Virus record (IMG/VR): IMGVR_UViG_2773858002_000001
Span: 27,802 to 91,801 of that record
Length of the DNA: 64,000 nt
Direction: 5' to 3' (one strand)
Source of the DNA: a virus
Lineage: Duplodnaviria; Caudoviricetes
Positions 1-59,313 of the stretch are shown piece by piece; within the stretch, counting starts at the first letter, position 1, and every line of letters starts with the position of its first letter. The notes under the pieces were generated by a model. That model did not search any database, was not told the origin of the DNA, and saw only the letters and a program-made list of their open reading frames with translations. The translations under genes were made by a program, and so were the position numbers.

Positions 1-957
1 AACTGTCTTCGAAGACTGATCTCCGAGGCTCTTCTGCGTGTCCTTGGCGAGGTGCGCCTTGACCGTCTCGATCAGCTGGAGCGTGGTCTGCCCCTGCGCA
101 ATCTCGACCCACTTGTCCACGTTGTCGAGCGTGATGACGCTGGCGATCTCCTTCAGCTTCGTCCAGCCAAGATGCGCAACCTTCGACCACGGCACCTTGC
201 TTTCGGCAAGGCTGTTGTAGATGCCGACCCAATAGGTGGCCTTGCGGTAGTGGAGGCCATGCTCCTTCTCGACAAACTCGCGGAAGGATGCGTAGGGCTC
301 ATACCAACCGTTCGCCTGGATCACCGAAAGCACGCCACCGAGTTTGAAGAAGGTAACCTCGGTCTGCTCCGACAGTTCGGTCACCAGCTCGCGGGCCTGC
401 TTCTCCTTCATCGTCTCGATCTCATGGATCAAGTCAGAGAGCACGTCTTCACCTGGCTTCGTCACCTCACCGGCTTTGGAAGTAGCCTTGGCCACGGCCT
501 TGCCAGCCGGTTTCTTACCCTTCGACGCCGGTTCGGCTTTCTCTTCGGCTTTTTCCTGCGCCTTGGCCGTATCCTTCTTCGCTGCCGTCTTCTTGGCAGC
601 GGTCTTTTTCGTGGTCTTCTTGGCCGCAGGCTTCTCTTCAGGTTCCGGTTCGGGTTCAGGCTCCGTCTTCGCCTCTTCCTCGGAGCCGTCGTCAAACTGC
701 TCCTTCAACCAGGCGCGCTTTTCTTCAGCACCCCAGCCGGACCATTTGGCCGGCGTGTCGATACCGAACTCCTGCACCAGATTGTCGAGCTCACCGCTGT
801 CCATGACATCGACATCGACTGTCGTTTCGTCGCCGTCATCGGTCGCGGCCTCGGTTTCAACCTCGGCGGCTGTCTCCGTGCCGGTTTCGTCTTCCAGCTC
901 TTCCTCCACGGCGGACTTCTTCCCGCCTTTCAGGAGGCTAAGGCTTGCTGCGCTCAT
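1..957 (-). CDS. Putative DNA-binding protein (acidic N-term, histone H1-like AAKK repeats, helical HTH-like domain); runs off window edge, absent from ORF track
   Basis: ATG at 957 with RBS AAGGAG; open to position 1. Reads MSAASLSLLKGGKKSAVEEE...PAAKKTTKKTAAKKTAAKK...FFKLGGVLSVIQANGWYEPYASFREFVEKEHGLHYRKATYWVGIY. Confidence 0.8.
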   Translation of the reverse strand, partial: MSAASLSLLKGGKKSAVEEELEDETGTETAAEVETEAATDDGDETTVDVDVMDSGELDNLVQEFGIDTPAKWSGWGAEEKRAWLKEQFDDGSEEEAKTEPEPEPEPEEKPAAKKTTKKTAAKKTAAKKDTAKAQEKAEEKAEPASKGKKPAGKAVAKATSKAGEVTKPGEDVLSDLIHEIETMKEKQARELVTELSEQTEVTFFKLGGVLSVIQANGWYEPYASFREFVEKEHGLHYRKATYWVGIYNSLAESKVPWSKVAHLGWTKLKEIASVITLDNVDKWVEIAQGQTTLQLIETVKAHLAKDTQKSLGDQSSKTV

Positions 958-1029
958 ACGTCTTACTCCTTGCTTGGGAATGTGACCAACAGAAGCCCTC
1001 CGTGGCAGCGTTGGTAAATGAACCCCACG

Positions 1030-1079
1030 ACACTAACAGTTGTGCAATTAATTGCAATTCAAGAATGCAGTTAATTGCA
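1030..1079 (-). promoter_or_regulatory. Sigma70-like promoter with two palindrome sites
   Basis: ATTGCA(1058-1053)-N17-TAGTGT(1035-1030). One site overlaps the -35/spacer (1043-1056); the other is 7 nt upstream of the -35 (1066-1079). Confidence 0.6.
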
Positions 1080-1607
1080 CTTGATGGCTAATTTTCCGAC
1101 CACCATACGCATGTCTTTCGTGATCCCCGGAAGGCGGTTCGATATAGCCAGCCCCATGGCCGCTAACCCATACGCATCGGCAGTGTTGTTGCTTATCGCG
1201 GTGTGCCCCCACCTCTTCAGGACGTACATCATGACCTGCTCCTTCGGGGAACCGCCTTTGCCGGTGACGAACTTCTTTAGCTCTGAGGCGCTGGGATCGT
1301 ACCATTTAAAGCCATCCAACACGAGCATGAAGCGGAGAAGTCCGCCAAGCTCTACCAACGGTATGGTGCTGTTGGGGTTCTTGCCGAGGGAATACCCCTC
1401 CAGGACCAAACGATCCGGCTTGAACTCGTGGATCGCGGTCATGACCTTCTCGACAATGAACCGGGTGCGTTCAACACCCCTCATATCTCCAGTTTTGATT
1501 TCGAACTCGGCCAACAGGTCAGGTGTCGCTGTACCGTTCTCACGTAGCACCACGATGCCGGTTGCTGTGGCAGACGGATCAATACCTATCGATGTCAGGG
1601 GCATCAT
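1071..1607 (-). CDS. ruvC: RuvC-like Holliday junction resolvase
   Basis: IGIDPS..ATG, LVLEG, LKKFVTGKG..KEQV and ADAYGLA motifs. Confidence 0.88.
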   Translation of the reverse strand: MMPLTSIGIDPSATATGIVVLRENGTATPDLLAEFEIKTGDMRGVERTRFIVEKVMTAIHEFKPDRLVLEGYSLGKNPNSTIPLVELGGLLRFMLVLDGFKWYDPSASELKKFVTGKGGSPKEQVMMYVLKRWGHTAISNNTADAYGLAAMGLAISNRLPGITKDMRMVVGKLAIKCN

Positions 1608-4795: not shown

Positions 4796-5128
4796 TTATT
4801 CGCTTTCGAGTTCTGCGACCATTCCCTGAAGCTTCTGGTCGGTCCATTCCTTGGCGAACTCGAACACGTCGTCCACCTCACCGTGCAGGCATGGAACCTT
4901 GAGGCTCACCTGAAGGCGTGCCGACTGATAATTGCCAAGGTTGTGCGTGTAGGACATCTCAGTCCCGACCTCACACCACGGGCCGACAGAGCCTTCGGTA
5001 GAAGCGGCGACCGAGGCCGGAACCTCAACGATTTCCTCATTGGCGTCTTCGGAGATGATCTCTCCCTTGTTCTTGGTCTGCTCACTGGTCGTGGCAGTTG
5101 CGGTTTTCTTCGTAATCTTCAATGCCAT
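4796..5128 (-). CDS. Hypothetical phage protein (NLGNYQSAR motif)
   Basis: AAGGAGG RBS; T.NLGNY.S motif recalled from conserved phage proteins. Confidence 0.7.
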   Translation of the reverse strand: MALKITKKTATATTSEQTKNKGEIISEDANEEIVEVPASVAASTEGSVGPWCEVGTEMSYTHNLGNYQSARLQVSLKVPCLHGEVDDVFEFAKEWTDQKLQGMVAELESE

Positions 5129-7536: not shown

Positions 7537-7586
7537 AGGATAGACGAAAGGCATAGCCGGTCAACAAAAAAGTGCAATTAATTTCA
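7537..7586 (-). promoter_or_regulatory. Sigma70-like promoter with palindrome 7 nt upstream of -35
   Basis: GTTGAC(7565-7560)-N17-TATCCT(7542-7537); site at 7573-7586. Confidence 0.72.
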
Positions 7587-16748: not shown

Positions 16749-17720
16749 CTATACGTTCTTTAGTTTGACCCCAAGCTCCGCTGAATTGACCTCCGAAACA
16801 CCCCACGGAAGGCCCGTAGCCGGGTTCGTTGGCAGGTACGCTTGAGCCTTGGTGTATAGCTCCCCGAACTCGAAAGAAGGGCCTTCGTAGTCTGCTCCCC
16901 CGGACCGCACCGCCACGATGGTGTCGAGCGCGGACCCGACCTTGCCCCGAGCTCCTAGGACAACAGCGTCAACGGTGTACCCTGTATCGTAGGGTGAAGG
17001 TATCCCTGTGTTGGTGAAGGTGGAGACTTCGTTTGCATTGACACCAACAATTGACGTCGAACCAGACAAGCCGACACCATTCACATCTGTGTAGCCGCCG
17101 CCCCAATCATTGTAAGACCCGTTCCCCGAGAACTCCATTTGCACCAGATGCTTCTGGAGCGTGCTCTCGTCTGCGAGTATGATTGCTGAAAAGTAGGTAT
17201 CGCCGCTGGTGCTCGCCTGCACTGGACGAAACTCGACTTGTGAAACAGGGTTGCCGGAACCGAGAAGCGTGTCCCCGGAGAAGCTGCCATCCTGAACCTT
17301 GTCGATATAGAACTCTACCACACCAGACGTTTCATGCATGGCGATGTGCAAGTCGATGCGGAAAACCACGCCGTAGCTGTATGCGTTGCTTGTCGTCAGG
17401 AGTGTAGTCCAGGCTGAACCGTCGAATGCTTGCACGTCGTATGTTGAGGTCGAATTGTTGGTCGATCTACGAACCCTAAACCTCGGGTTCCCAGCTGCGT
17501 CGTTGAAGATGAGGAATGGCTCATTGCGATACCAGGCGAAGCGGATGTGTGCCGTAAACCAGAAGTCGGTCGTGGCAGGAAAGATATCGGTTCGGGCATA
17601 TTCCTCCCATTCAACCACGAAGTATTCTCGAACCGTATCGGCCTTGTACGCCGACCCCGATCCAGATCGTGCATTGCCTTGTACGTCGGCTTCCGAAGAG
17701 CCCGCGAAAAGGATGGCCAT
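16749..17720 (-). CDS. Putative virion/tail protein (lectin-like)
   Basis: Beta-rich, last gene of the tail operon; resembles 27553..28656. Confidence 0.6.
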   Translation of the reverse strand: MAILFAGSSEADVQGNARSGSGSAYKADTVREYFVVEWEEYARTDIFPATTDFWFTAHIRFAWYRNEPFLIFNDAAGNPRFRVRRSTNNSTSTYDVQAFDGSAWTTLLTTSNAYSYGVVFRIDLHIAMHETSGVVEFYIDKVQDGSFSGDTLLGSGNPVSQVEFRPVQASTSGDTYFSAIILADESTLQKHLVQMEFSGNGSYNDWGGGYTDVNGVGLSGSTSIVGVNANEVSTFTNTGIPSPYDTGYTVDAVVLGARGKVGSALDTIVAVRSGGADYEGPSFEFGELYTKAQAYLPTNPATGLPWGVSEVNSAELGVKLKNV

Positions 17721-17721
17721 A

Positions 17722-19278
17722 TTAGTTCTCCCGTAGAACGGTGTAAGGCTTCAGCGAAGTGACATGTGAGGTGCTGGGTTCAGCTGTTTCGTCAACAACC
17801 GCGTAGACTTTGTATGCCGACACTTTGTTCGGCTGCCGCAGATCGTATTTGTCGAGAAAATAGTCGATCATTTGCTGATACAGAGCGTCCGACAAACCGC
17901 CTGTGTAAAACAACAGCTCGTAAAGATGACCGTCAAAAGCCCCACCACCAGATACTCCTGAGCACCGAAGAAACTCCAAAGACTCCACGGTGGCACTTGG
18001 GTACGTGTTGGAGCCAATGAAGGGTTGTCGCTCTTCGTTCAGGTAGACGTTGGGTGTGTTCCAAGTGGGCAAATTCACGGCGATCAGGAACGGGTATTTC
18101 TGAAAACCACTGAACCTCCAAGCACTGTTGAACACATGGATATGCTCGCCAGTGGTCGGTCTGAAATAGATGGCGATTTTGCCTCCGTTTGATGCGGTTG
18201 ACCCCAATACGCCGTGGAAGATCGTAGTGTCGATCTTGTCCACCACCATGATCACGGTCTTGCCGGAATTTGCAGTCAGTCCCGACGGCTCCTTGTATGC
18301 AAAATCCTCGAAAAACTGCCCAATAGCATTCTTTGCTTCGATATAGGGCATGCCGTTCTGCCCACCGGTCCTGAAGATCGGTCGATTTGCCGGCGTCGTC
18401 TGTTTGGCGTCTGGCATGAACCCCTGGTTCGTCCATAGGGCTACAGGATCGCCGTCAACACAGGGTACTGTCCCAGCGTCATCGGAAAACACGCCCACGG
18501 ACGCATCAAAGTGCAGCATCTTCCGAGATTTCGGGAAAAGACCTACCTCCGGGGGGTCCGACTTGGGAAACGGAACAGTCGGTATGGGGTAGTCGGTGTC
18601 TGCTGAGTATCGAGCCACAGTCGTAACGCGAACGCAATCGATGGCACCACCCTTCCCAGACGCAAACCAACCGTCCAAGTTTGCGGATAGAATGCTGGAG
18701 TGCGTTCCTGGCTTCACTGGGTACTCGAAAGTGCCGCTTGCCACCATAGTGGCGACCCCGGAGCCCAACGAACCCTGGTAGAGCCGAACGGTGTTTCCGG
18801 TTCTCTCTATGCAGACATAGACCCACTCGCCAAGGGGAAATGCGACGGAGCTGGTGACTGCGGTATAGTCATTCCCGTCGGTATCCAAACGCGCGGCGAG
18901 ATACCCACCCGACACGTACCCCCGAAGGCCGTTTGTGTTCAAAAATCTGGGCGGGTTCGCATCATCAACAAGGTTTCGGAAGATGAATGCCTCGTAAGTG
19001 AAATCACTGATACCCAGGTCATCGATATTGTGGGCTACGTTTATATGGCCGCCATTCACCACGGCCTGCCCCTCAACGGCGGGGGTGCCCAAGGTGCAGC
19101 CTATGGAGTCAGGAACATACTTGATGAGACTTCCTGCATAGTTCGCCTCCAAATCTGTGTTGAAGTCGTTCGAATAGAGAACGTCATACCAGTGGGGGTC
19201 AGACAGCTCTACGGGACCGCCTCCTGAGAGCAGCGCAGATGCGGAGACCCCGTTCAGGAGTTGCATCATGGTGAGCAT
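17722..19278 (-). CDS. Tail fibre/receptor-binding protein with LamG/ConA-like domains
   Basis: DFTYEAFI, WVYVCIER.G..RLY, IDCVRVT..ARY, LHFDAS...W. Confidence 0.7.
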   Translation of the reverse strand: MLTMMQLLNGVSASALLSGGGPVELSDPHWYDVLYSNDFNTDLEANYAGSLIKYVPDSIGCTLGTPAVEGQAVVNGGHINVAHNIDDLGISDFTYEAFIFRNLVDDANPPRFLNTNGLRGYVSGGYLAARLDTDGNDYTAVTSSVAFPLGEWVYVCIERTGNTVRLYQGSLGSGVATMVASGTFEYPVKPGTHSSILSANLDGWFASGKGGAIDCVRVTTVARYSADTDYPIPTVPFPKSDPPEVGLFPKSRKMLHFDASVGVFSDDAGTVPCVDGDPVALWTNQGFMPDAKQTTPANRPIFRTGGQNGMPYIEAKNAIGQFFEDFAYKEPSGLTANSGKTVIMVVDKIDTTIFHGVLGSTASNGGKIAIYFRPTTGEHIHVFNSAWRFSGFQKYPFLIAVNLPTWNTPNVYLNEERQPFIGSNTYPSATVESLEFLRCSGVSGGGAFDGHLYELLFYTGGLSDALYQQMIDYFLDKYDLRQPNKVSAYKVYAVVDETAEPSTSHVTSLKPYTVLREN

Positions 19279-21782
19279 TACGGGGTGGCCTCCAGGTCTC
19301 CGATCAAGTCCCACTCATCGGCAGCCACTTTCACGAGCGATGCCGAGCTATGCTGCTTTCTCAATCGGTTGGTCTCGGGCGTATTGAGGACAACCGCCCC
19401 TTCAGGCAGAACCGTGACCTGGCCGCTGCCGGATTGCCTGATCTGAATGACGCTACCCACAGGTATCGCAGCAGACGCATCCAGGGGCACCGTGACGTTC
19501 ACGGGATCGCTGGACGAAATACGAACGTAAGTCCGCTCTGCATCTGCGAGGGTCAACGTGTAGTCACTCGCCTGCCCGTTTAGGCGCAGCGTCCCCTCCC
19601 CTGCTAAGTCTCCAGGCACCCAGCTTTGCTCCTGCGCGTCCCAAACCAAAGCTTGCCCATCGCTCGGCGGTGTCGTTGTCAGATCAACGTCGGTCAGGCC
19701 GTCCAAACCCATTGCCACCACGCCCTGCTGGGTTCGAGGCCCTGCTGGAAAGTCAGGGTCTTCCCAGAACGTCACCAGAGTGCCGGCTGTGCCGTCATGC
19801 GTGGCGTTCGACCTGTTGGTGATGCCCACCCGATCAGGTACGCCCTGGAGTGTGGCTGCGGGATCAATCGGGTCACCAAAATTCTGCCAAAGCAATCCAT
19901 CAGACGACACCCAGGCGCGGATGACATTGCCGTCGAAGCCAAGCCTGAGCCAATTGTAGAGGTTCGGTTCGTTCTTGAGGATCGTCTCCGTCCCGGAGGG
20001 GCTTACCCAGCCGAGGCGGAGTTGCGCCTGCGTATCCGAGTTCGAATTTCCGAGTGCAAGGAACACGAAGGCATTATTGAACGCGCGCTGGACGACCACG
20101 CCGCCCATGTGCCCGGAGACCTCGAAAGAAGACGGAACCAGGCGCGTCGTAACGATCCACGGCTCGACCCGGTTGGTCAGATCACGGTAGACGACGGCAT
20201 GCTTCACACCACTCGACTGTGGTCCGCCCTGAACGATCAGACCCCGAGCTTCCATCTCCACAAAGTCAGCCGATGGCGCGTTATGTCGTCCTGGGAACAT
20301 GTTCGCTTTCGGCGGAGCAAATGGACCGAACTCGTATGTCGCCGGCACGTATTCGCTTTCACCTATGGGTGATCCACCTCCACCGCCTTCGCCGGGCACC
20401 CATATTTGGTTGGCGGCATCATAGGTCAGAACGTTGCCATCGACCGGGGCATTCGTCTCCAGATCGACATCCTCCAACTCCCCTAACGCGGCGATGAGCT
20501 CCTGGTCTCCGATGTCCAAAGTCAACGTACCGCTGATGTTCGTTACGTTGACACCCGATCCAGTGAAATTAATTGCACTTATCGGGTCGCCTTCGACGGG
20601 CGTCCCGTCGCCAAGAAATTCCAGGGCGTTCTGCGCAGTCAAAATGAGATGCCCGTTCTCAGGCATCTGCACATCGAACCCGTTGAATGACATGCTGACG
20701 ATCTGGTCTGTCAGCGGAGTAGAACCGTCGGTCGCCGCAATCGAATAATCCGATTGAGGTGCGTACTCGTAGCTGTAATCAGCGCCGGTCTTCTTGAGGC
20801 GCAGGAACATGCCCACGCTTGGATCATTCGGCGTGGCCACGTCAGTCAGGTCTTGCAGCCGGAAATCTTCGAGATCGGCTATGAGGTCTTGAAGCGAGCG
20901 GAACACGAGCTCGCTTTCTGTGGGATCAACCACGAGGAAATGGTTGCCGAACCCTTCCATCGTCTGCGGGCCATCAACCATCCCCAGAAACGAATAGGTG
21001 ATTACAGCAGGGCTCGGCCCCCAAGCGGCACCGTTCCACGCCAGAACGTCGTTCGGTTCCGCACCGTCCGTAACAACATCGGTAAGGTGCCCAAGCTCGG
21101 CGGCCGGAAACGCATAGGCCGTGAAGGTTGCCTTTCCATTTTGCCACGTCATGAGCTGGCCGTCCTGTGGCGACCCGAGCTCCACGTCAGTCAGTTCGTC
21201 CAGACTTGTCGCCCCTCCCCCACTCGGGGGTTCAACGTTCACCCATTGATTGCCGCTCTCGCTCCATGCAAGCATCTGACCGTCGGCCACGGTCGTGAGA
21301 GTGACATTGGCCAAGTCTCCCAAGTTGGGGATGCCTAAAGGAGCTTTTGCTTCCCAGCGGTTTTCTGCCTCGTCAAACGTCAGAACGTCACCGTCATTCG
21401 GGCTCACTATGCCGACGTTCGTGAGGTCGTCGAGCGTCGAAGGCGTCCCGGCTGGGTCTTCAGTCCACCCAGAACCCGAATAAGTCCAGAACGATGCGCT
21501 GGCCTCGTTGAAGAACTTCATCTTCTGCAGGGGAGCGTAGAACCGCCAGCCGTTGAAGTAGAGTGCGACCCGGTTCTCAAAGCCGCTCCACGCACCCGTA
21601 GGTGTCACACCCACAATGTAGGTGTCTCCCTGGGCCGGGGAGCTCGGTGGGTTGTTCTGAATGCCCTTGGCAGAGCGCGCCACCATGGCATCGAAAACCA
21701 CGGCAGCCTCGTTGAAGACGACTTCTTTCTGGACATCGTTCGATGCCATCAAGCGCACGCCGAGCTTTGGGGTCTGTGCCAT
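19278..21782 (-). CDS. DUF2793-type tail fibre protein
   Basis: TPKLG....QKEV..NEA, PP.SP..GD.YIV...TGAW.G; seven LxDLTDV-like repeats. Confidence 0.8.
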   Translation of the reverse strand: MAQTPKLGVRLMASNDVQKEVVFNEAAVVFDAMVARSAKGIQNNPPSSPAQGDTYIVGVTPTGAWSGFENRVALYFNGWRFYAPLQKMKFFNEASASFWTYSGSGWTEDPAGTPSTLDDLTNVGIVSPNDGDVLTFDEAENRWEAKAPLGIPNLGDLANVTLTTVADGQMLAWSESGNQWVNVEPPSGGGATSLDELTDVELGSPQDGQLMTWQNGKATFTAYAFPAAELGHLTDVVTDGAEPNDVLAWNGAAWGPSPAVITYSFLGMVDGPQTMEGFGNHFLVVDPTESELVFRSLQDLIADLEDFRLQDLTDVATPNDPSVGMFLRLKKTGADYSYEYAPQSDYSIAATDGSTPLTDQIVSMSFNGFDVQMPENGHLILTAQNALEFLGDGTPVEGDPISAINFTGSGVNVTNISGTLTLDIGDQELIAALGELEDVDLETNAPVDGNVLTYDAANQIWVPGEGGGGGSPIGESEYVPATYEFGPFAPPKANMFPGRHNAPSADFVEMEARGLIVQGGPQSSGVKHAVVYRDLTNRVEPWIVTTRLVPSSFEVSGHMGGVVVQRAFNNAFVFLALGNSNSDTQAQLRLGWVSPSGTETILKNEPNLYNWLRLGFDGNVIRAWVSSDGLLWQNFGDPIDPAATLQGVPDRVGITNRSNATHDGTAGTLVTFWEDPDFPAGPRTQQGVVAMGLDGLTDVDLTTTPPSDGQALVWDAQEQSWVPGDLAGEGTLRLNGQASDYTLTLADAERTYVRISSSDPVNVTVPLDASAAIPVGSVIQIRQSGSGQVTVLPEGAVVLNTPETNRLRKQHSSASLVKVAADEWDLIGDLEATP

Positions 21783-26342: not shown

Positions 26343-27553
26343 GCGTCGAACATCTCCGCTGGCCGCACCTCTATCAGCTTGACGTCAGCCGCGCCGCCAA
26401 CCCCATACTCTTCGAGGGAAACGGGAAGACGATCTGTGTCAAAGCGAACAGGGACGAAGAACTCATAGCCTGCGGTCAGGAGCATGTTGGCCTCTGGCGC
26501 AGGATGACGGACCACGCTCACCCCGTCACGGTTGGTTTCGAGCTCGCCGTAATTGTCCGGTGCCGTGAAAGTGACGCTTTTGCCATCTCCCGACACGTTC
26601 GTCAGAATGAGAGACATCGCTTCGTTGCTGTTGTTGTCGGGGTTCAACCATCCACGAGTGATGATCTTGTCGCCCGTAGCTAGGCCAACAAAAGTTCCCG
26701 CCTCCCCGATGATTGTCCACCGTCCCGTCGGCTGATCATTGCTGTCCAACTGAGGCTCGATGCGCATGGCAGTGAGGTCGTATTTCGACCAGTTCGGAAC
26801 GAACGTGATTACCCCACGCTCATAATCGATCTCAAAATTGTCCACCTCCAGGCCGCCGACCCCTACCCGAACGGTGCCTGGTTTTGGGCGGTAGATCGGC
26901 CTGGTCTGTATCGTCCTGCCACTCGGTGTCGGATAATGCTTCACAAGCTGGAACTTGAAGCGGATGTGATCGCCAACCCCGAACTCCTGGTCGAGGTATG
27001 AGATGTCAGGTGCCCGCCGTGCCTCTTCTTCCGTCGCCAGTGTCGAGGTGTAGTCCACGTGGTCGTGGTAAAGGAACGCGTTCTTGCGCCCGCCCATTGC
27101 ACGGAAGAATGAGATCAGGCCCTGCAGATGCTCCATCGTCCGCACTCCGTACGCGATGTCGTACTCCATCAGGGGCTGCGTCCACCGGCTACTACGCTGG
27201 TCATGGCCGCTATCGACCCGCACCACGTCCGTTTGGAAGCGGGTGGCTCCAATGCTGTTGTAGCTGATGTCAAACGGGAAGATTTCATCGATAACCATGT
27301 CGATCCACTCGAAATTCGGTGTGAACGGGATCATCACGTTGGCGTAAACCTGGGTGAACCGGTTTGCGCCGGCTGCTTCGGGTTCGCCCGTGTTGAGGGG
27401 ATACTCACCCATCACGTTGGCATAGACCTGCGTCACCCTGCGCCTGTGGTCATTCGAGACCCCGAGGTTCTGGGCGTAAACGCTTGTGATGATGCGTTCG
27501 CTCTCACCGCTGCACAGCGATGCGGTCCACACCTGGGTGAGCCGTCCAGACAT
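26339..27553 (-). CDS. DUF2460 distal tail protein (GTA gp12-like)
   Basis: FP.DISY...G..RF.T......SG..QR..RW, FQLVK.Y, TAGYEF.VPVRFDTD. Confidence 0.85.
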   Translation of the reverse strand: MSGRLTQVWTASLCSGESERIITSVYAQNLGVSNDHRRRVTQVYANVMGEYPLNTGEPEAAGANRFTQVYANVMIPFTPNFEWIDMVIDEIFPFDISYNSIGATRFQTDVVRVDSGHDQRSSRWTQPLMEYDIAYGVRTMEHLQGLISFFRAMGGRKNAFLYHDHVDYTSTLATEEEARRAPDISYLDQEFGVGDHIRFKFQLVKHYPTPSGRTIQTRPIYRPKPGTVRVGVGGLEVDNFEIDYERGVITFVPNWSKYDLTAMRIEPQLDSNDQPTGRWTIIGEAGTFVGLATGDKIITRGWLNPDNNSNEAMSLILTNVSGDGKSVTFTAPDNYGELETNRDGVSVVRHPAPEANMLLTAGYEFFVPVRFDTDRLPVSLEEYGVGGAADVKLIEVRPAEMFDA

Positions 27554-28656
27554 CAGGCGATCTCCACACCGATGTGCATGGCGTTCGCCTTGATCTTGTT
27601 CCAGCCCCCACCATCAGGTGCAGTCTGAAAGATGTGATGCTTGGCTGTGAAACGCGTTGTAAGTGTCATTGGATCACTATCGGCGGTTTGGCCGTCGTAC
27701 CGACACTTCACCTTGATGTTCGAAGTCCCTGCGGCATCCTTACGGGTTCTGGCGTGTACGCTGACCGCCAACACGTCGATAATGTTCGCAGGAAGCTCAT
27801 CAAGATCGAACATGTCCACATGGCCGAGGGTGTTCGAGTACAGGTATGACAGATCGTCGTCGGGCGGTACGTCGTCCACTGCGGTGTAATTCGATAGGCC
27901 GGCACCGTAGGCGGCCATGTCATTCGGGCCTGCGTCCTGAAGCGGCATCAACGCATGAACAACGACGTCACCGCAGAAATCGTTGAACTGCGTTCCACTG
28001 CTGTCGCAGATGTACACGTCATCGAAATAGGAGAAAGCATTACCGTACCCGGTATTCCAATCTGCACTCGAACAGAACAGCTGGCAAAGGTTCACCGATT
28101 TCGGATTTGCGGGGTTTGTCCATCCTTCTGTCGTCAGGACAACCGCTCCATCAAGGCGCACTATGCAGTGTGAGCCTGGCTTATATTTCACCTCAACATA
28201 CTGCCAGACGTCGGCAAACATGATGTTCGGTGCAGAGGCGGCCACAAGGTGGGTCGATACCTGACCGAGTTCGTTTGTCGTGTAGCCAATGACCGAAATG
28301 CCACTTTGCGCGTTTCTGCAAATAGAAACCTGAGAATTTACGGTCCCCAGGCGGTTATCGTAGAGAAGCGAGAAGAACCGGTCGAAGTCCGAAGCGCTCA
28401 ACCGAACCGCTGCGCCCATGATCACTTCATCGACAGTCTCTATTGCTCGACGGACCTGCCCAAACTGGCTGCCAGCCGCGCCCCGGTTCAACCTGATGCA
28501 ATAACCCCTACCAGTCCGCGTATCGTGGTTCATCGCCACATTGCGAACGCTTGAATATCCCGACGAAGCTACGACGTCCGCATCTTGCTGGACGCCGCCA
28601 AGTTCCGTCCTGTGCGGTCCGTAGGTGTCGAACCCATCCATCCAAATCAGGCTCAT
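27553..28656 (-). CDS. Putative tail protein
   Basis: MSLIWMDGFD start, WQYVEVK, YFDDVYICD; follows the tape measure gene. Confidence 0.7.
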   Translation of the reverse strand: MSLIWMDGFDTYGPHRTELGGVQQDADVVASSGYSSVRNVAMNHDTRTGRGYCIRLNRGAAGSQFGQVRRAIETVDEVIMGAAVRLSASDFDRFFSLLYDNRLGTVNSQVSICRNAQSGISVIGYTTNELGQVSTHLVAASAPNIMFADVWQYVEVKYKPGSHCIVRLDGAVVLTTEGWTNPANPKSVNLCQLFCSSADWNTGYGNAFSYFDDVYICDSSGTQFNDFCGDVVVHALMPLQDAGPNDMAAYGAGLSNYTAVDDVPPDDDLSYLYSNTLGHVDMFDLDELPANIIDVLAVSVHARTRKDAAGTSNIKVKCRYDGQTADSDPMTLTTRFTAKHHIFQTAPDGGGWNKIKANAMHIGVEIA

Positions 28657-48460: not shown

Positions 48461-49252
48461 TCACGCTCCCTTGATGATGTTCAAGTTCGGGAAGCTCGTG
48501 TCGAGCTGAACCCCCAAACCCATAAGGATCGCGCCGAGCGTCTTGGACGCCAGTTGGTCATCCTCGACCTGCAAATGCACGGAGGCGTAATCCTTCGAAG
48601 ACTTGATTTCGAGACCGCCTGCCGTGAGCGCCTTTGAATGCTCAATCATTTTCGGGCCTTCCACCCGCACAGACAGCGTGGTGCCTTGGTAGCGCGCGGC
48701 TATCCGAAGGTCGTCGTTGCCCGCAACGAGGTAGTATCGGCTACCCGCCGACGTGCCGTGCACCGGCTGATACATGCGCTCCGCGTCTCGAAGTTTCACG
48801 AGCGGGGCGGATTTCATCTTCGAAAGATCGAACGCCTCCCACTTGGTACTGAGAGACGACGACTGCTTGTTCGTCGGCTTCTCCTTCTTTTGGATCGGTG
48901 GAAGCGCGCCGAGCGTCCCACTTGGCGCACCGCCCTCAGCAACCGCAGCCGGGGGTAGCTGGTCTCCGTAGGTATCCTTCAGCATATGGATCGCAGCTGC
49001 GAGGGACTTGCCGAGTTTGATCTTCTCAATGGCGGGGAGTGTTCCCCCGTTGAGTTTCTGCAGCTGATCCAACGTGACGTCCACGTTGTGCTCCTGCGTT
49101 CCGCCCCCCACTGGAACGTAGAACTTGAACATCTTGGAAGTCAGCTTCACTTCGATGACGCTGGCGCTCAGCCAGTCGAACAATGGCTGCGGAATGCCGA
49201 TCTTCTTGATCGCTCCCAGCGCGTTCATCGAATGTTTGAGTTTAACAGGCAC
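48461..49252 (-). CDS. Hypothetical protein
   Basis: AAGGAGG RBS; first gene after the promoter at 49289. Confidence 0.75.
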   Translation of the reverse strand: MPVKLKHSMNALGAIKKIGIPQPLFDWLSASVIEVKLTSKMFKFYVPVGGGTQEHNVDVTLDQLQKLNGGTLPAIEKIKLGKSLAAAIHMLKDTYGDQLPPAAVAEGGAPSGTLGALPPIQKKEKPTNKQSSSLSTKWEAFDLSKMKSAPLVKLRDAERMYQPVHGTSAGSRYYLVAGNDDLRIAARYQGTTLSVRVEGPKMIEHSKALTAGGLEIKSSKDYASVHLQVEDDQLASKTLGAILMGLGVQLDTSFPNLNIIKGA

Positions 49253-50058: not shown

Positions 50059-51138
50059 TCACGCTGCGCGTTGTATTTTCTGCACATGTAGCCCCGGCAT
50101 GACCGTGAACCACTTCTTTTCCCACTCGGCCTTAGCCATTGCCGCCTTCTCGGCTTCAATCTTGGCCTTCTGAAGAGCTTCGGCCTGAGCCTGTTTCGCG
50201 GCCTCTGACATGCCGTATTTCTTCACCTGCGCTGCCTTCTCAGACGGGTATTTGCCTACAGAGCCAAGCGCCTCTACACGCTCCCAATCGACGTAATCGC
50301 CAAGTTCGGTAAAGCGCTCCTTCAACTCGTGCACGATCACCTTCAGCGCCGGGTCAGCGTAAGAGGCGACAACCTTGTCGTATAGAACCGCCTCGGGCAC
50401 CTGCCCTGACCGTTGAACGTCGAGGATGCGCATTAGAGACGTCATATCGTAGTGCGCGTAGCAAAGCCCCTTATTGAACACGGGGCCGTTATTGTGGCTC
50501 AAGGTCCACACGGTATCGAGCATCATCTCAGCAGTGAACTCTCCGCTGACGAAGCGCGCCAGGCAATCCGTCACCTGTCCCCACGCCTTGCCGCCATACC
50601 CGCCATTCCACTTGCTATTGTAGAATTGCCAACGCAGACATTCGACATAATTGCCGATGGTGGTTTTCGGCGGAGAGCTAAGAAGCGCCTTGTGGATGCC
50701 GCTCTCCCCGCCGTTCACTGACTTCAAGAAATCTGCGACTTCAGGTCCGAACTTCTGCTTGATCATGCCCATGTCGGACATCAGCGACTGATTGTGCCGG
50801 CTTTCACGCGTACAGATCAGCAGTAGGTAGTAGAATGCCCGAACAGCCTTTGGCCCCATAAAACTGTGATACTTCTCAACGAAATCGAGCTCCCACTCAT
50901 CGAGAGGTTCTAGGGCCGCTCGTCTCGATTGAATGAGAGCCATGCCGTGGTTCATCCCGTAAAACCACAGGGCCTCTCTCTCGGGGACGGTTTTCGGTTG
51001 GTCGTCACTCTTGAGAAACGCCTCGACCATGGCAGTCACTTTCGCCACCGGAACATCGCCCATGTCTCTATGCGACGTGAGTACGCGGCTTTGGTGGAAA
51101 GCAAGTGTCGTTTTTGGGTCGGTCAGGGCCACGGTCAC
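50059..51138 (-). CDS. Conserved-looking hypothetical protein (E.RH / GYGGKAW / HNNG..FNK)
   Basis: 359 aa, AAGGAGG RBS, enzyme-like polar motifs; family not recognised. Confidence 0.75.
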   Translation of the reverse strand: MTVALTDPKTTLAFHQSRVLTSHRDMGDVPVAKVTAMVEAFLKSDDQPKTVPEREALWFYGMNHGMALIQSRRAALEPLDEWELDFVEKYHSFMGPKAVRAFYYLLLICTRESRHNQSLMSDMGMIKQKFGPEVADFLKSVNGGESGIHKALLSSPPKTTIGNYVECLRWQFYNSKWNGGYGGKAWGQVTDCLARFVSGEFTAEMMLDTVWTLSHNNGPVFNKGLCYAHYDMTSLMRILDVQRSGQVPEAVLYDKVVASYADPALKVIVHELKERFTELGDYVDWERVEALGSVGKYPSEKAAQVKKYGMSEAAKQAQAEALQKAKIEAEKAAMAKAEWEKKWFTVMPGLHVQKIQRAA

Positions 51139-54347: not shown

Positions 54348-54397
54348 ATCCTAACAGTATGCCGCCCCCAAGCAAGAAAAATGTGCAATTAATTGCA
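54348..54397 (-). promoter_or_regulatory. Sigma70-like promoter with palindrome 7 nt upstream of -35
   Basis: CTTGCT(54376-54371)-N17-TAGGAT(54353-54348); site at 54384-54397. Confidence 0.75.
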
Positions 54398-56942: not shown

Positions 56943-57558
56943 GATCGATAACCTTCATGCGCTGATCGATCAGTTCGGACATGCGCTGTGCGAGAGCCAT
57001 GAGGCGGTCTTGCTGGGCCACCTTCCGCGTGAACTCTGCGCCCCCATCGTCTGTGGTGCCGATGTGCGCGATCACCTTCGGAGTCAGGCCAAGCAGCTCC
57101 GAACGGTGCTCATGTACTTTCAAGATCGAGTTTAGATAACCAAGTGGAGCCTGTGGGCTCGTCTTCTCATCCAGGTTGGTCAGGCGGGACCAGAGTTCGC
57201 TTTCAATGAGGTCCAGGCGGGCAAGCCCTTCGCCGCGATGCCGAGCGAAATCCTGCGTCGTTCCGAAGACCTCCCATCGTGCATGTACCCGCCTGATATA
57301 GCGATCCATTGCACGCCCGTCGTTGATGTCCAGAAGGGCCATAAGCTGCCGCTTGTTGCGTACGCCCTTCATCATCATGAGTTCGACACGAGCCACCTGC
57401 TGCTCGTCGTACTCCTGAGCCTCGCCGTTGGTGCGGTCGTACTGTGGACTCTCAGGAACTTCCACGCGGTTAGGTAGGGTGGCGCGTTCCTCCAAGGGAA
57501 GGCGCTCCCTAACCTTCTTCAGATCGACCCTCTTCCGCCTGATCTTGACCTTGGACAT
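56923..57558 (-). CDS. Putative terminase small subunit
   Basis: HTH-like helical protein overlapping the TerL start. Confidence 0.6.
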   Translation of the reverse strand: MSKVKIRRKRVDLKKVRERLPLEERATLPNRVEVPESPQYDRTNGEAQEYDEQQVARVELMMMKGVRNKRQLMALLDINDGRAMDRYIRRVHARWEVFGTTQDFARHRGEGLARLDLIESELWSRLTNLDEKTSPQAPLGYLNSILKVHEHRSELLGLTPKVIAHIGTTDDGGAEFTRKVAQQDRLMALAQRMSELIDQRMKVIDHGGEGT

Positions 57559-58460
57559 CAGCTCTTCTTCGCCGCCGCCTGTTTCTTCGCCTCCTTCGCC
57601 TCAGCGTCGTTGGCGAGCTTGTCGTAGATTTTCGCGTGGGCAGCCTTAGCGATCTCGGCCTGCTTGTCCTTGGGCAATGCGTTGAAAGTCTCGCAGATCA
57701 CCGCAAGCGCGACGTTGCGCAGCTTTGCCCCGGCAATGCCCATGGCAGCTTTCATGGCATTGTCGTAGCTGGCGACCTCATGACCGATCAACGCGGTAAC
57801 GTCATCACCTGCGATCTTCATGGCCTTCTTCATGGCCGTCGTATATGCGGAGTGCTCATCCGGCAGCAGAAGCAGGTTCACAGAGATCGGACGCTCGACG
57901 TCCTGGGCTGTCATCTTGATGCCGTCTGACGGGTTGAAATCCGGCACCTGCAGAAGCTTCAGGACCGATGTTTGTTCATCCTCACCGATACCGGTCATCG
58001 CCCGGATTTCCTGGGAGCTGTAATCGTTGTGTAGATCAACAAGCAGCCGCGCCAATTTGATGGGAATATTCTGTCCGCGCAGATTGTTCATCGAAAGCGT
58101 GCGAACCTTCGCCCGCTTGTCGTCAAACGGAACGACGATGATCGGGATCACCTTCTTACCGGCGACCTTCGAAGCTCGCCAACGGTGCTCGCCGTCAACG
58201 ATCAGGAACTTGCCCTCCTGTTCGGGATTGAGGCGGCAGAGGATGGGCTGGTTCATGCCCTCTTCCTTCACCTGTTGGACAATAGCCTCGAAGAACTCGG
58301 CCTCCATGTCGTTCGGGTTGTACTCGTTCGGCTCGACGTCATCGATTGGAACGACACGAAAGTCGATGCTCTCGTCCATGGCCTCCGGGCTAGCGTCGGC
58401 CTGTGCAATTAATTGCGCATTCGTCTCAGATTTCTTCGGCTTCTTCAGGTTCAGTGCCAT
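57558..58460 (-). CDS. ParB/Srx-like N-terminal domain protein
   Basis: PNEYNPN, G..QPI, IVDGEHRWRA, MNNLRG. Confidence 0.88.
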   Translation of the reverse strand: MALNLKKPKKSETNAQLIAQADASPEAMDESIDFRVVPIDDVEPNEYNPNDMEAEFFEAIVQQVKEEGMNQPILCRLNPEQEGKFLIVDGEHRWRASKVAGKKVIPIIVVPFDDKRAKVRTLSMNNLRGQNIPIKLARLLVDLHNDYSSQEIRAMTGIGEDEQTSVLKLLQVPDFNPSDGIKMTAQDVERPISVNLLLLPDEHSAYTTAMKKAMKIAGDDVTALIGHEVASYDNAMKAAMGIAGAKLRNVALAVICETFNALPKDKQAEIAKAAHAKIYDKLANDAEAKEAKKQAAAKKS

Positions 58461-59313
58461 CATCGCCCTCCGTGGTGCGTAGCATTTCAGGTGTCATGCG
58501 CTTGGCGTCGAGCTGGTCGGACAGCCGGTAGCGCGAGGGATCAATCTGTATCGTAGAGCCGACAGAAAGCGACGACATGCGAGCTTTAAGCCAACGTTCA
58601 CGCCAGTAGTCGATTTGATCGGCCAGGGTGAACGTGGCGGTCTTGCCGTAAGCGTCGGTCTCGCCCCGAAGGAACGGGACCGCTTTCTTCCGCAGTTCCA
58701 TACCATAAAAGCCGTGATCGGTTTCATCAACATCAATCAGCTGTACGCCGCGCTGATGAAGTCGGTTGTACTGACTGCCTTTGCCGTGGAGTGTGCGGAT
58801 GCCGAAGAACAGGTACTGATAGCTGTAACGCAGCTCCAAAAGGCGAATGACGTCTCGGCTCGTAGCGGCCAGAGCAAGGAGCTTTCCGCCCGTCATCTGA
58901 CCGAACTCGAACACGGGAAGGCACCGCCGCATCATCACGACCCTGTGCTGGTTCGCTAGGCGCAGGTGCTCGTGCTCTTTGTGCCACCCCAAATGGTCTA
59001 TCAGCTGCGTCCAGTGGTTCGGTGGGTCCGACAGACCCACGACACCTAAGAAGCCGCCAGACACACGGTCTCGCACGAGCAAGGCAAGTGACCGGCCTGC
59101 CCCGGCAAAGTGCGGTGACTGCGGCTCCGACGAGAGCACCACACGCCAGTAATCAAAGAGGTCACGAGCCAGCCCTTTGTCCACTACGACGACCTCCGGA
59201 TCGAACGTCGCAAGGTCTACTGGAACGCACATGCGAAGAGCCTGGTGTTCGACGTCACAAAGCCTTCGCAACCACTTGTTCTGTGTCTTGATCTTGTCGA
59301 TTGGTGCCGGCAT
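58426..59313 (-). CDS. DUF4338/DruA-like GNAT-fold protein
   Basis: GR.L..LVRD...G.FLG...L, LGW, GGKLLAL...S, HGKGSQYNRL; TGATG coupling. Confidence 0.7.
   Translation of the reverse strand: MPAPIDKIKTQNKWLRRLCDVEHQALRMCVPVDLATFDPEVVVVDKGLARDLFDYWRVVLSSEPQSPHFAGAGRSLALLVRDRVSGGFLGVVGLSDPPNHWTQLIDHLGWHKEHEHLRLANQHRVVMMRRCLPVFEFGQMTGGKLLALAATSRDVIRLLELRYSYQYLFFGIRTLHGKGSQYNRLHQRGVQLIDVDETDHGFYGMELRKKAVPFLRGETDAYGKTATFTLADQIDYWRERWLKARMSSLSVGSTIQIDPSRYRLSDQLDAKRMTPEMLRTTEGDDGTEPEEAEEI

Follow-up and report, generated by a model that had tools for sequence, protein, structure and literature searches.

A phage-encoded candidate binder of a palindrome repeated throughout a temperate phage genome

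The window analysed in this work is a stretch of 64,000 nucleotides (positions 27,802 to 91,801) that forms the right-hand 64 kb of the 91,801-bp IMG/VR 'provirus' record IMGVR_UViG_2773858002_000001, assigned to Duplodnaviria, Caudoviricetes. It holds numerous copies of a 14-bp palindrome, TGCAATTAATTGCA, and opens on a minus-strand gene whose full-length product has 403 amino acids (aa). We propose that the phage encodes, in this 403-aa protein, its own sequence-specific reader of the TGCAATTAATTGCA sites, an interpretation that sequence comparison makes probable, and that it most likely acts as a sequence-specific regulator rather than as a histone-like protein. A preliminary description of this DNA had put the gene forward as the best candidate for the motif-binding protein, and the co-occurrence and joint change of gene and motif reported here lend support to that choice. 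Positions are those of the window unless given as genome positions.

The gene was absent from the original track of open reading frames (ORFs) and had been described as an ORF with its start codon at 957 that remains open to the edge. The ORF listing, an AAGGAG ribosome-binding site at 966-971 and the frame of the full record (403 aa; L001:1246-2457, minus strand) establish that the gene is real. Its first 319 codons occupy window positions 1-957 on the minus strand, starting from the ATG at 955-957, and the remaining 84 codons, which encode most of a tail resembling ribbon-helix-helix (RHH) proteins, lie just beyond the window at genome positions 27547-27801. The GC content of third codon positions (GC3) is 0.76. 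The translation does contain all the features that had been read from the letters, namely an acidic N-terminus, PEPE and AAKKT repeats and a YASFREFVEKEHGLHYRKATYW stretch.

The palindrome is made up of TGCAA arms 10 bp apart. With up to two mismatches allowed, 29 copies of TGCAATTAATTGCA are found in the window against 0.12 expected, a number reached by none of 100 shuffles; the whole 91.8-kb record contains 52 copies, and 26 sites in its phage are perfect instances of TGCAA-N4-TTGCA. The copies are mostly intergenic, only 8 of the 52 falling wholly inside called ORFs (P about 4e-23), and some sit within long tail genes. Their spacing is evener than chance (coefficient of variation, CV, 0.69 vs 0.97; largest gap 4.6 kb vs 7.9 kb expected; P about 0.003). 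Six sites each lie 8 nt upstream of a promoter-like unit of the form TTGNNN-16 nt-TANNNT, at an identical offset: one of the two sites upstream of the 403-aa gene (O2, described below), the site at 54384-54397, and those at window positions 7573, 9764, 49325 and 51205. About 16 others are squeezed into the gap that separates one gene's stop codon from the next gene's ribosome-binding site, and at genome positions 1875, 11774, 13766, 16064 and 16851 no nucleotide separates the site from the upstream stop codon. Asymmetric variants of the site show no orientation bias in this phage (8 vs 9) or in Vibrio phage PG28; across the whole genome of Rhodobacter phage RcZahn, an asymmetric-centre variant, TGCAATCAATTGCA, was observed five times in one orientation along transcription and not once in the other. 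A literature search for the TGCAATTAATTGCA motif and five variants found no paper containing them, and the papers describing phages RcZahn and DLP3 do not mention the palindrome.

Two of the sites stand before the 403-aa gene itself. By sequence, a putative sigma-70-type promoter occupies 1030-1057 on the minus strand, with a -35 box TTGCAA at 1052-1057, a 16-nt spacer and a -10 box TAGTGT at 1030-1035. Site O1 (1043-1056), a perfect TGCAATTAATTGCA, overlies the -35 box and spacer of this promoter. Site O2 (1066-1079), which reads TGCAGTTAATTGCA on the plus strand and carries one mismatch, ends 8 nt upstream of the -35 box, a distance that corresponds to the 7 nt counted in the NTTGNN register of the preliminary description; it doubles as the last two codons and the stop codon (C-N-stop) of the upstream gene for a RuvC-like resolvase. 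The two had been called the only closely tandem pair of sites, which holds within the window, where no other pair lies less than 100 nt apart, and fails genome-wide, where a second pair is found at 18996 and 19040. The members of this second pair are 44 nt apart and directly precede a minus-strand gene with a GTG start, which the gene calling may have wrongly replaced by a plus-strand ORF (17586-18605).

The arrangement upstream of the 403-aa gene recurs in its relatives. In 13 close relatives a site lies over the core promoter of the homologue, and 3 of the 13 have a second upstream site as well, as here. In RcZahn, PG28, Stenotrophomonas phage DLP5 and the complete 102-kb genome G003, the promoter of the homologue has a site 8 nt upstream of its -35 box, and in RcZahn and PG28 this promoter is the only one in the genome with a site at the 8-nt offset. 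The operator layout across these promoters fits autoregulation, and the suggestion that the protein combines activation with feedback repression is a fair reading of where O1 and O2 would place it. Separately, short homologues on Reyranella chromosomes (L277, L278, L280) each have one lone TGCAATCGATTGCA upstream; the CCCAT-N4-ATGGG 'arms' also seen at these Reyranella loci were rejected as operators, being host hairpins that resemble repetitive extragenic palindromes (REP-like), of the form cctcCCCATTTGAATGGGgagg.

Gene and palindrome occur together well beyond this phage. Searches returned 291 homologues of the 403-aa protein; of 1.84 billion cluster representatives, 3001 matched at E<=0.001, and a homologue occurs in 46 phage records. 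We took from viral, metagenome and genome collections 70 distinct loci that hold a homologue and span 10 kb or more; 51 of them contain at least three sites, for a total of 425 sites vs 27 for the reversed pattern. Among cultured phages that carry a homologue, RcZahn has 21 palindrome sites vs 0 for the control, PG28 has 36 vs 4, and DLP5 has 13 sites with perfect arms in 40 kb. The test was also run in reverse, by counting sites in four large contigs that had been found through the motif and had not appeared in the homologue search: G003 alone proved rich in sites (29), and it carries a homologue with a site just upstream. RcZahn, PG28 and the complete genomes G005 and G006 each possess exactly one gene of the family. 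The co-variation of homologue and motif across relatives, proposed beforehand as a check on the candidate, was thus found: the two occur together and, as detailed next, change together.

The arms of the palindrome differ between lineages, and its centre is looser (TTAA, TCAA, TCAG, CGGG). In this phage, with 26 perfect TGCAA-N4-TTGCA sites, residues 237-240 of the protein, encoded at window positions 238-249 and forming the start of the second helix of a predicted helix-turn-helix, are Y237-R238-K239-A240. G005 has 54 perfect GGCAA-N4-TTGCC sites and no perfect ones of TGCAA type, and its homologue reads DRTI at these residues; G006 has 13 perfect TCCAA-N4-TTGGA sites, again with no perfect ones of TGCAA type, and reads RSKA. 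The re-coding extends over the whole genome in both cases, with 81 sites of the form GGCAATYRATTGCC in G005 (L287-L292) and 17 of the form TCCAATYRATTGGA in G006 (L293-L297). TCCAA arms were found in three more contigs whose homologues have S or T at residue 238, and TCCAC arms in L183; among 35 lineages with a confidently inferred arm, R or H at residue 238 is accompanied in all cases by G at arm position 2. The RHH-like strand is the same in G006 as in this phage, which leaves the helix-turn-helix as the part whose changes follow those of the arms. Two placements recur among the sites of G005, some lying 8-9 nt ahead of a TTGACA promoter and others immediately before a ribosome-binding site.

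These lineage-specific arms bear on the proposal that no phage protein reads the motif, and that it instead serves a host factor, acts as an AT-rich promoter element of the UP type or folds into an RNA hairpin in long transcripts. The six sites at the fixed offset do occupy the position of an UP element and are followed by a T-rich stretch, the mostly intergenic placement would suit such elements, and the palindrome is able to form a 5-bp hairpin. Yet phages that infect Alpha- and Gammaproteobacteria use an identical 14-mer, while in close lineages every site has changed to GGCAA or TCCAA arms, a combination that fits a phage-encoded reader, and many copies directly adjoin a ribosome-binding site and have no promoter close by. 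The hairpin version was rejected, since the structure is weak (-2.5 kcal/mol), is abolished by the commonest variant (C to A), and variants are equally frequent in both orientations. We therefore consider a motif without a phage reader very improbable.

The 403-aa protein belongs to a family that databases do not explain. It matches phrog_17202 of PHROGs (E 5.3e-47, residues 113-303), which is listed with unknown function, so that the match names the protein without accounting for it, and sequence searches of Pfam, NCBIfam and the PDB returned no family. Its parts were delimited by aligning 34 homologues and by modelling with AlphaFold2. The N-terminal peptide (residues 1-14, ...SLSLLKGGKK; 916-957, minus strand) has S5, L8 and L9 invariant in the 34 homologues, and a motif x-L-x-L-L-K-(G/K) was seen to recur at the starts of many homologues (in L135-L178 and L284), with similar x-L-L-K motifs opening distant homologues. 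It is followed by a two-helix HeH/SAP-like domain (residues 46-90; 688-822, minus strand), modelled at a predicted local distance difference test score (pLDDT) of about 90 with weak SAP-type matches (Z 4.3-4.9), and for which one family member gives a weak Pfam HeH match. A linker predicted to be disordered (residues 92-168; 454-684, minus strand; pLDDT <50) contains the PEPE and AAKKT repeats.

The part conserved in all relatives is a predicted ParB/KorB-like DNA-binding domain (residues 170-313; 19-450, minus strand), modelled at pLDDT 86-97. Structural comparison of these residues with VIA-align returned the ParB-parS complex 6s6h at Z 8.7 (root-mean-square deviation, rmsd, 4.1, 117 aligned), Spo0J (1vz0) at 7.8, the KorB DNA-binding domain bound to its operator (1r71) at 6.8, SopB at 4.6 and P1 ParB at 4.4. 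The Rubisco assembly factor Raf1 was matched too, at Z 9.4. The predicted helix-turn-helix lies at 199-285 on the minus strand, with helices at residues 225-233 and 237-253 of the model joined by a G-containing turn. Given the confidence of the helical domain and its ParB/KorB-type fold matches, the earlier label of a helix-turn-helix protein appears reasonable. The tail (residues 316-403), modelled alone at pLDDT 89.6, consists of an extended segment followed by helices at 13-30 and 35-48 in the numbering of the tail model, and its best VIA matches are mostly RHH proteins (MazE9, NikR, SvtR, AmrZ, Arc), at low Z (3.4-4.8). Foldseek searches of the PDB gave nothing significant for either the protein model or the tail model, and ParB_N (PF02195) was matched neither by the 403-aa protein nor by the 34 homologues at E up to 1.

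This architecture does not sustain the companion label of a histone-like protein, under which an abundant nucleoid-like product would compact or shield phage DNA from the sites, its lysine-rich linker acting as a histone H1 tail. The linker is indeed rich in K and A in the 403-aa protein and in its nearest relative, and that relative, P0002, is the only one with a Pfam HC2 match (5.7e-6), which the 403-aa protein itself does not give. The even spacing of the sites and the presence of some of them in long tail genes would also suit compaction. Against this, the linker varies in length and composition across the family and is often acidic or absent in the 34-homologue alignment; the 403-aa protein has no match to an HU/IHF or H1 family and shows none of their globular folds; it has no ParB_N CTPase domain for spreading or sliding; and the even spacing may simply follow gene boundaries. 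With the AAKK/PEPE stretch a variable rather than a conserved feature and compaction or shielding of DNA finding no direct support, we consider such a role unlikely.

Several observations weigh against the 403-aa protein as the reader of the array. Its fold matches are consistent across the ParB family, but their Z-scores lie within the range that helical domains may reach by chance. Fewer than three sites are present in 19 of the 70 homologue-bearing loci, and the phage contig L157 (IMGVR_UViG_3300023313_000004) keeps the residues RKA and shows no array in 20.8 kb, where the sole type of repeat observed consists of promoter-like TTGACAAGT boxes. G005 and G006 depart from the promoter layout: the site closest to the homologue falls within the RuvC-like gene, 300-470 nt upstream, and not at the core promoter. 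Any co-evolving phage protein could mimic the pattern, and three others, to which no function is assigned, are common to all five array-bearing genomes (window positions 4796-5128, 48461-49252 and 50059-51132 in this phage). The joint change itself amounts to two events, as a tree reduces the S/T-238 change to one event and the RTI change to a second; testing the tree for independent joint changes left one informative pair, with which a sign test has no power, and only two independent events carry no formal significance. Contact of residues 237-240 with the bases is suggested by their position in the modelled helix rather than by a residue-level superposition.

The genomic setting of the gene is conserved among cultured relatives. 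Nearly all genes of the record are on the minus strand. Immediately upstream of the 403-aa gene, the RuvC-like resolvase gene (1071-1607, minus strand; Pfam RuvC 6.4e-15) ends in K-C-N-stop, its last codons TGC AAT TAA (1071-1079) falling within O2, and the order RecA, Cas4-like, RuvC and 403-aa homologue is kept in RcZahn, PG28 and DLP5, whose homologues are gp66, QWS69833.1 and gp067, respectively. A search directly 3' of the 403-aa gene found no minus-strand terminator. At the left edge of the record, a truncated large serine recombinase (genome 1-1479, minus strand; L298:1-1479:-) with Recombinase, Zn_ribbon_recom and partial Resolvase domains is probably the phage integrase, and the phage is therefore taken to be temperate and integrating. 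DLP3 and DLP5 are also temperate, the latter having been recovered as a phagemid (PMC7326821).

Within this genome, two further proteins could be thought to read the palindrome. The first is a short paralogue of 171 aa, encoded beyond the window at genome positions 20040-20555 (L285:1041-1556:-, minus strand), which might be the real binder, for instance as a prophage repressor, with the 403-aa protein serving another role or merely competing for the sites. It shares the DNA-binding domain (29% identity to that of the 403-aa protein, E 2e-12), retains R-K-A where the recognition helix begins and matches phrog_17202 too; its start is preceded, at about 65 nt, by a degenerate site, and the phage is temperate. 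The dense arrays of RcZahn, PG28, G005 and G006 nevertheless coexist with the long-type gene only, which excludes the short form as general binder, and we judge it improbable that the paralogue takes the place of the 403-aa protein. That both proteins bind the same sites in this phage is quite possible, and would be compatible with the 403-aa protein as reader.

The second is a canonical ParB-family protein (57558-58463, minus strand; ParB_N 5e-16, TIGR00180 1.2e-19) whose gene adjoins the terminase, and for which the palindromes would be loading sites akin to parS or to KorB operators. Proteins of the ParB family do bind palindromes of 13-16 bp. The complete genomes G005 and G006, with their 81 and 17 sites, yield no ParB_N match, however; no copy of the canonical protein turned up in G003, G005 or G006; and the versions of this phage and PG28 share only 37% identity over 125 aa despite an identical motif. 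Missing from G005 and G006, canonical ParB was rejected as the general binder, and we hold it highly unlikely that it reads the palindromes. The neighbouring gene (58426-59313, minus strand) was noted to have a Pfam match to DruA, a Druantia protein (3e-11).

For the 403-aa protein as the binder of the sites, we infer a mechanism in which two copies would pair through the RHH-like tails, so that each ParB/KorB-like helix-turn-helix domain could read one TGCAA arm, the arms being one helical turn apart. Protein bound at O1 would cover the -35 box and spacer from which its own gene is transcribed and should thereby limit its own synthesis. Binding at the other approximately 50 sites would most likely govern transcription along the entire one-directional genome, much as a KorB or stoperator network does, with an output at those sites that could be repression, activation or a roadblock. 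A role in silencing the prophage is possible because the phage, like DLP3 and DLP5, is temperate. If the Vibrio relatives are strictly lytic, as we take them to be, the family must act in lytic growth too.

The cultured phages that carry both gene and palindrome include therapy candidates against Vibrio and Stenotrophomonas, and their genome papers label the gene as hypothetical or mislabel it as 'ribonuclease E/G' because of its repetitive linker. If the proposed role is true, a family of about 3000 cluster representatives would gain a function and a conserved genome-wide array of sites would be explained. Nature would also have supplied two changes of specificity (R238 to S together with G to C, and K239/A240 to T/I together with T to G) that open the protein-DNA code to direct testing, and the system would bear on the timing or silencing of transcription in large one-directional phage genomes without a ParB clamp.

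A broader reading, which we offer tentatively and hold to be the less probable outcome, would extend this role to a large unnamed family, combining a ParB-type helix-turn-helix with an RHH-like tail and lacking the CTPase domain, that runs a genome-wide operator lattice in widespread 80-100-kb siphophages of Alpha-, Beta- and Gammaproteobacteria. As part of the same reading, this group would include the SIO-2-like Vibrio phages, Delepquintavirus, RcZahn and several Rhizobium phages. Arms and recognition helix would be re-coded together, creating 'immunity' or control groups, and the lattice would provide a self-marking layer of control (through roadblocks, promoter tuning or genome organisation) in temperate and lytic members alike, unlike either the clamp mechanism of KorB or the oriented stoperators.

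Comparison with known systems places the proposed network among several that rely on dispersed copies of a single site. The stoperators of cluster A mycobacteriophages, read by L5 gp71 or Bxb1 gp69, are asymmetric 13-mers oriented with transcription. They share with the array described here the presence of dozens of copies of one short site in the short intergenic gaps of a temperate phage, a single phage protein thought to read the whole set, and a specificity of site and protein that changes jointly between lineages. The present sites differ in being palindromic, with asymmetric variants in both orientations (8 vs 9), the protein family is unrelated, and relatives of this phage include ones reported as lytic.

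The linear plasmid-prophage N15 has four dispersed SopB centromere sites and a SopA partner. Both N15 and this phage would have a protein with a ParB-family helix-turn-helix and palindromes scattered through the phage genome, some of them in promoter regions. This phage differs in having approximately 50 sites, in having no ParA/SopA gene identified and in integrating. A further resemblance is that a relative, DLP5, reportedly persists as a phagemid (PMC7326821).

The nearest mechanistic parallel is KorB of the IncP-1 plasmid RK2, which has 12 OB operators and whose CTPase domain makes it a sliding clamp (PMC11790492). The 403-aa protein has no ParB_N CTPase domain, so the KorB sliding-clamp mechanism cannot apply as such; it carries instead an RHH-like tail and an N-terminal half composed of a HeH-like domain and a linker predicted to be disordered. 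The replicon is a phage rather than a plasmid, with approximately 50 sites instead of 12 and with no KorA-like partner identified. What the two systems would have in common is a ParB-type helix-turn-helix (here a predicted one, from the match of the model to 1r71, Z 6.8), a palindrome of 13-14 bp repeated over one replicon, with some copies beside promoters and others far off, and a gene that, in the KorB system and here, is likely to be autoregulated.

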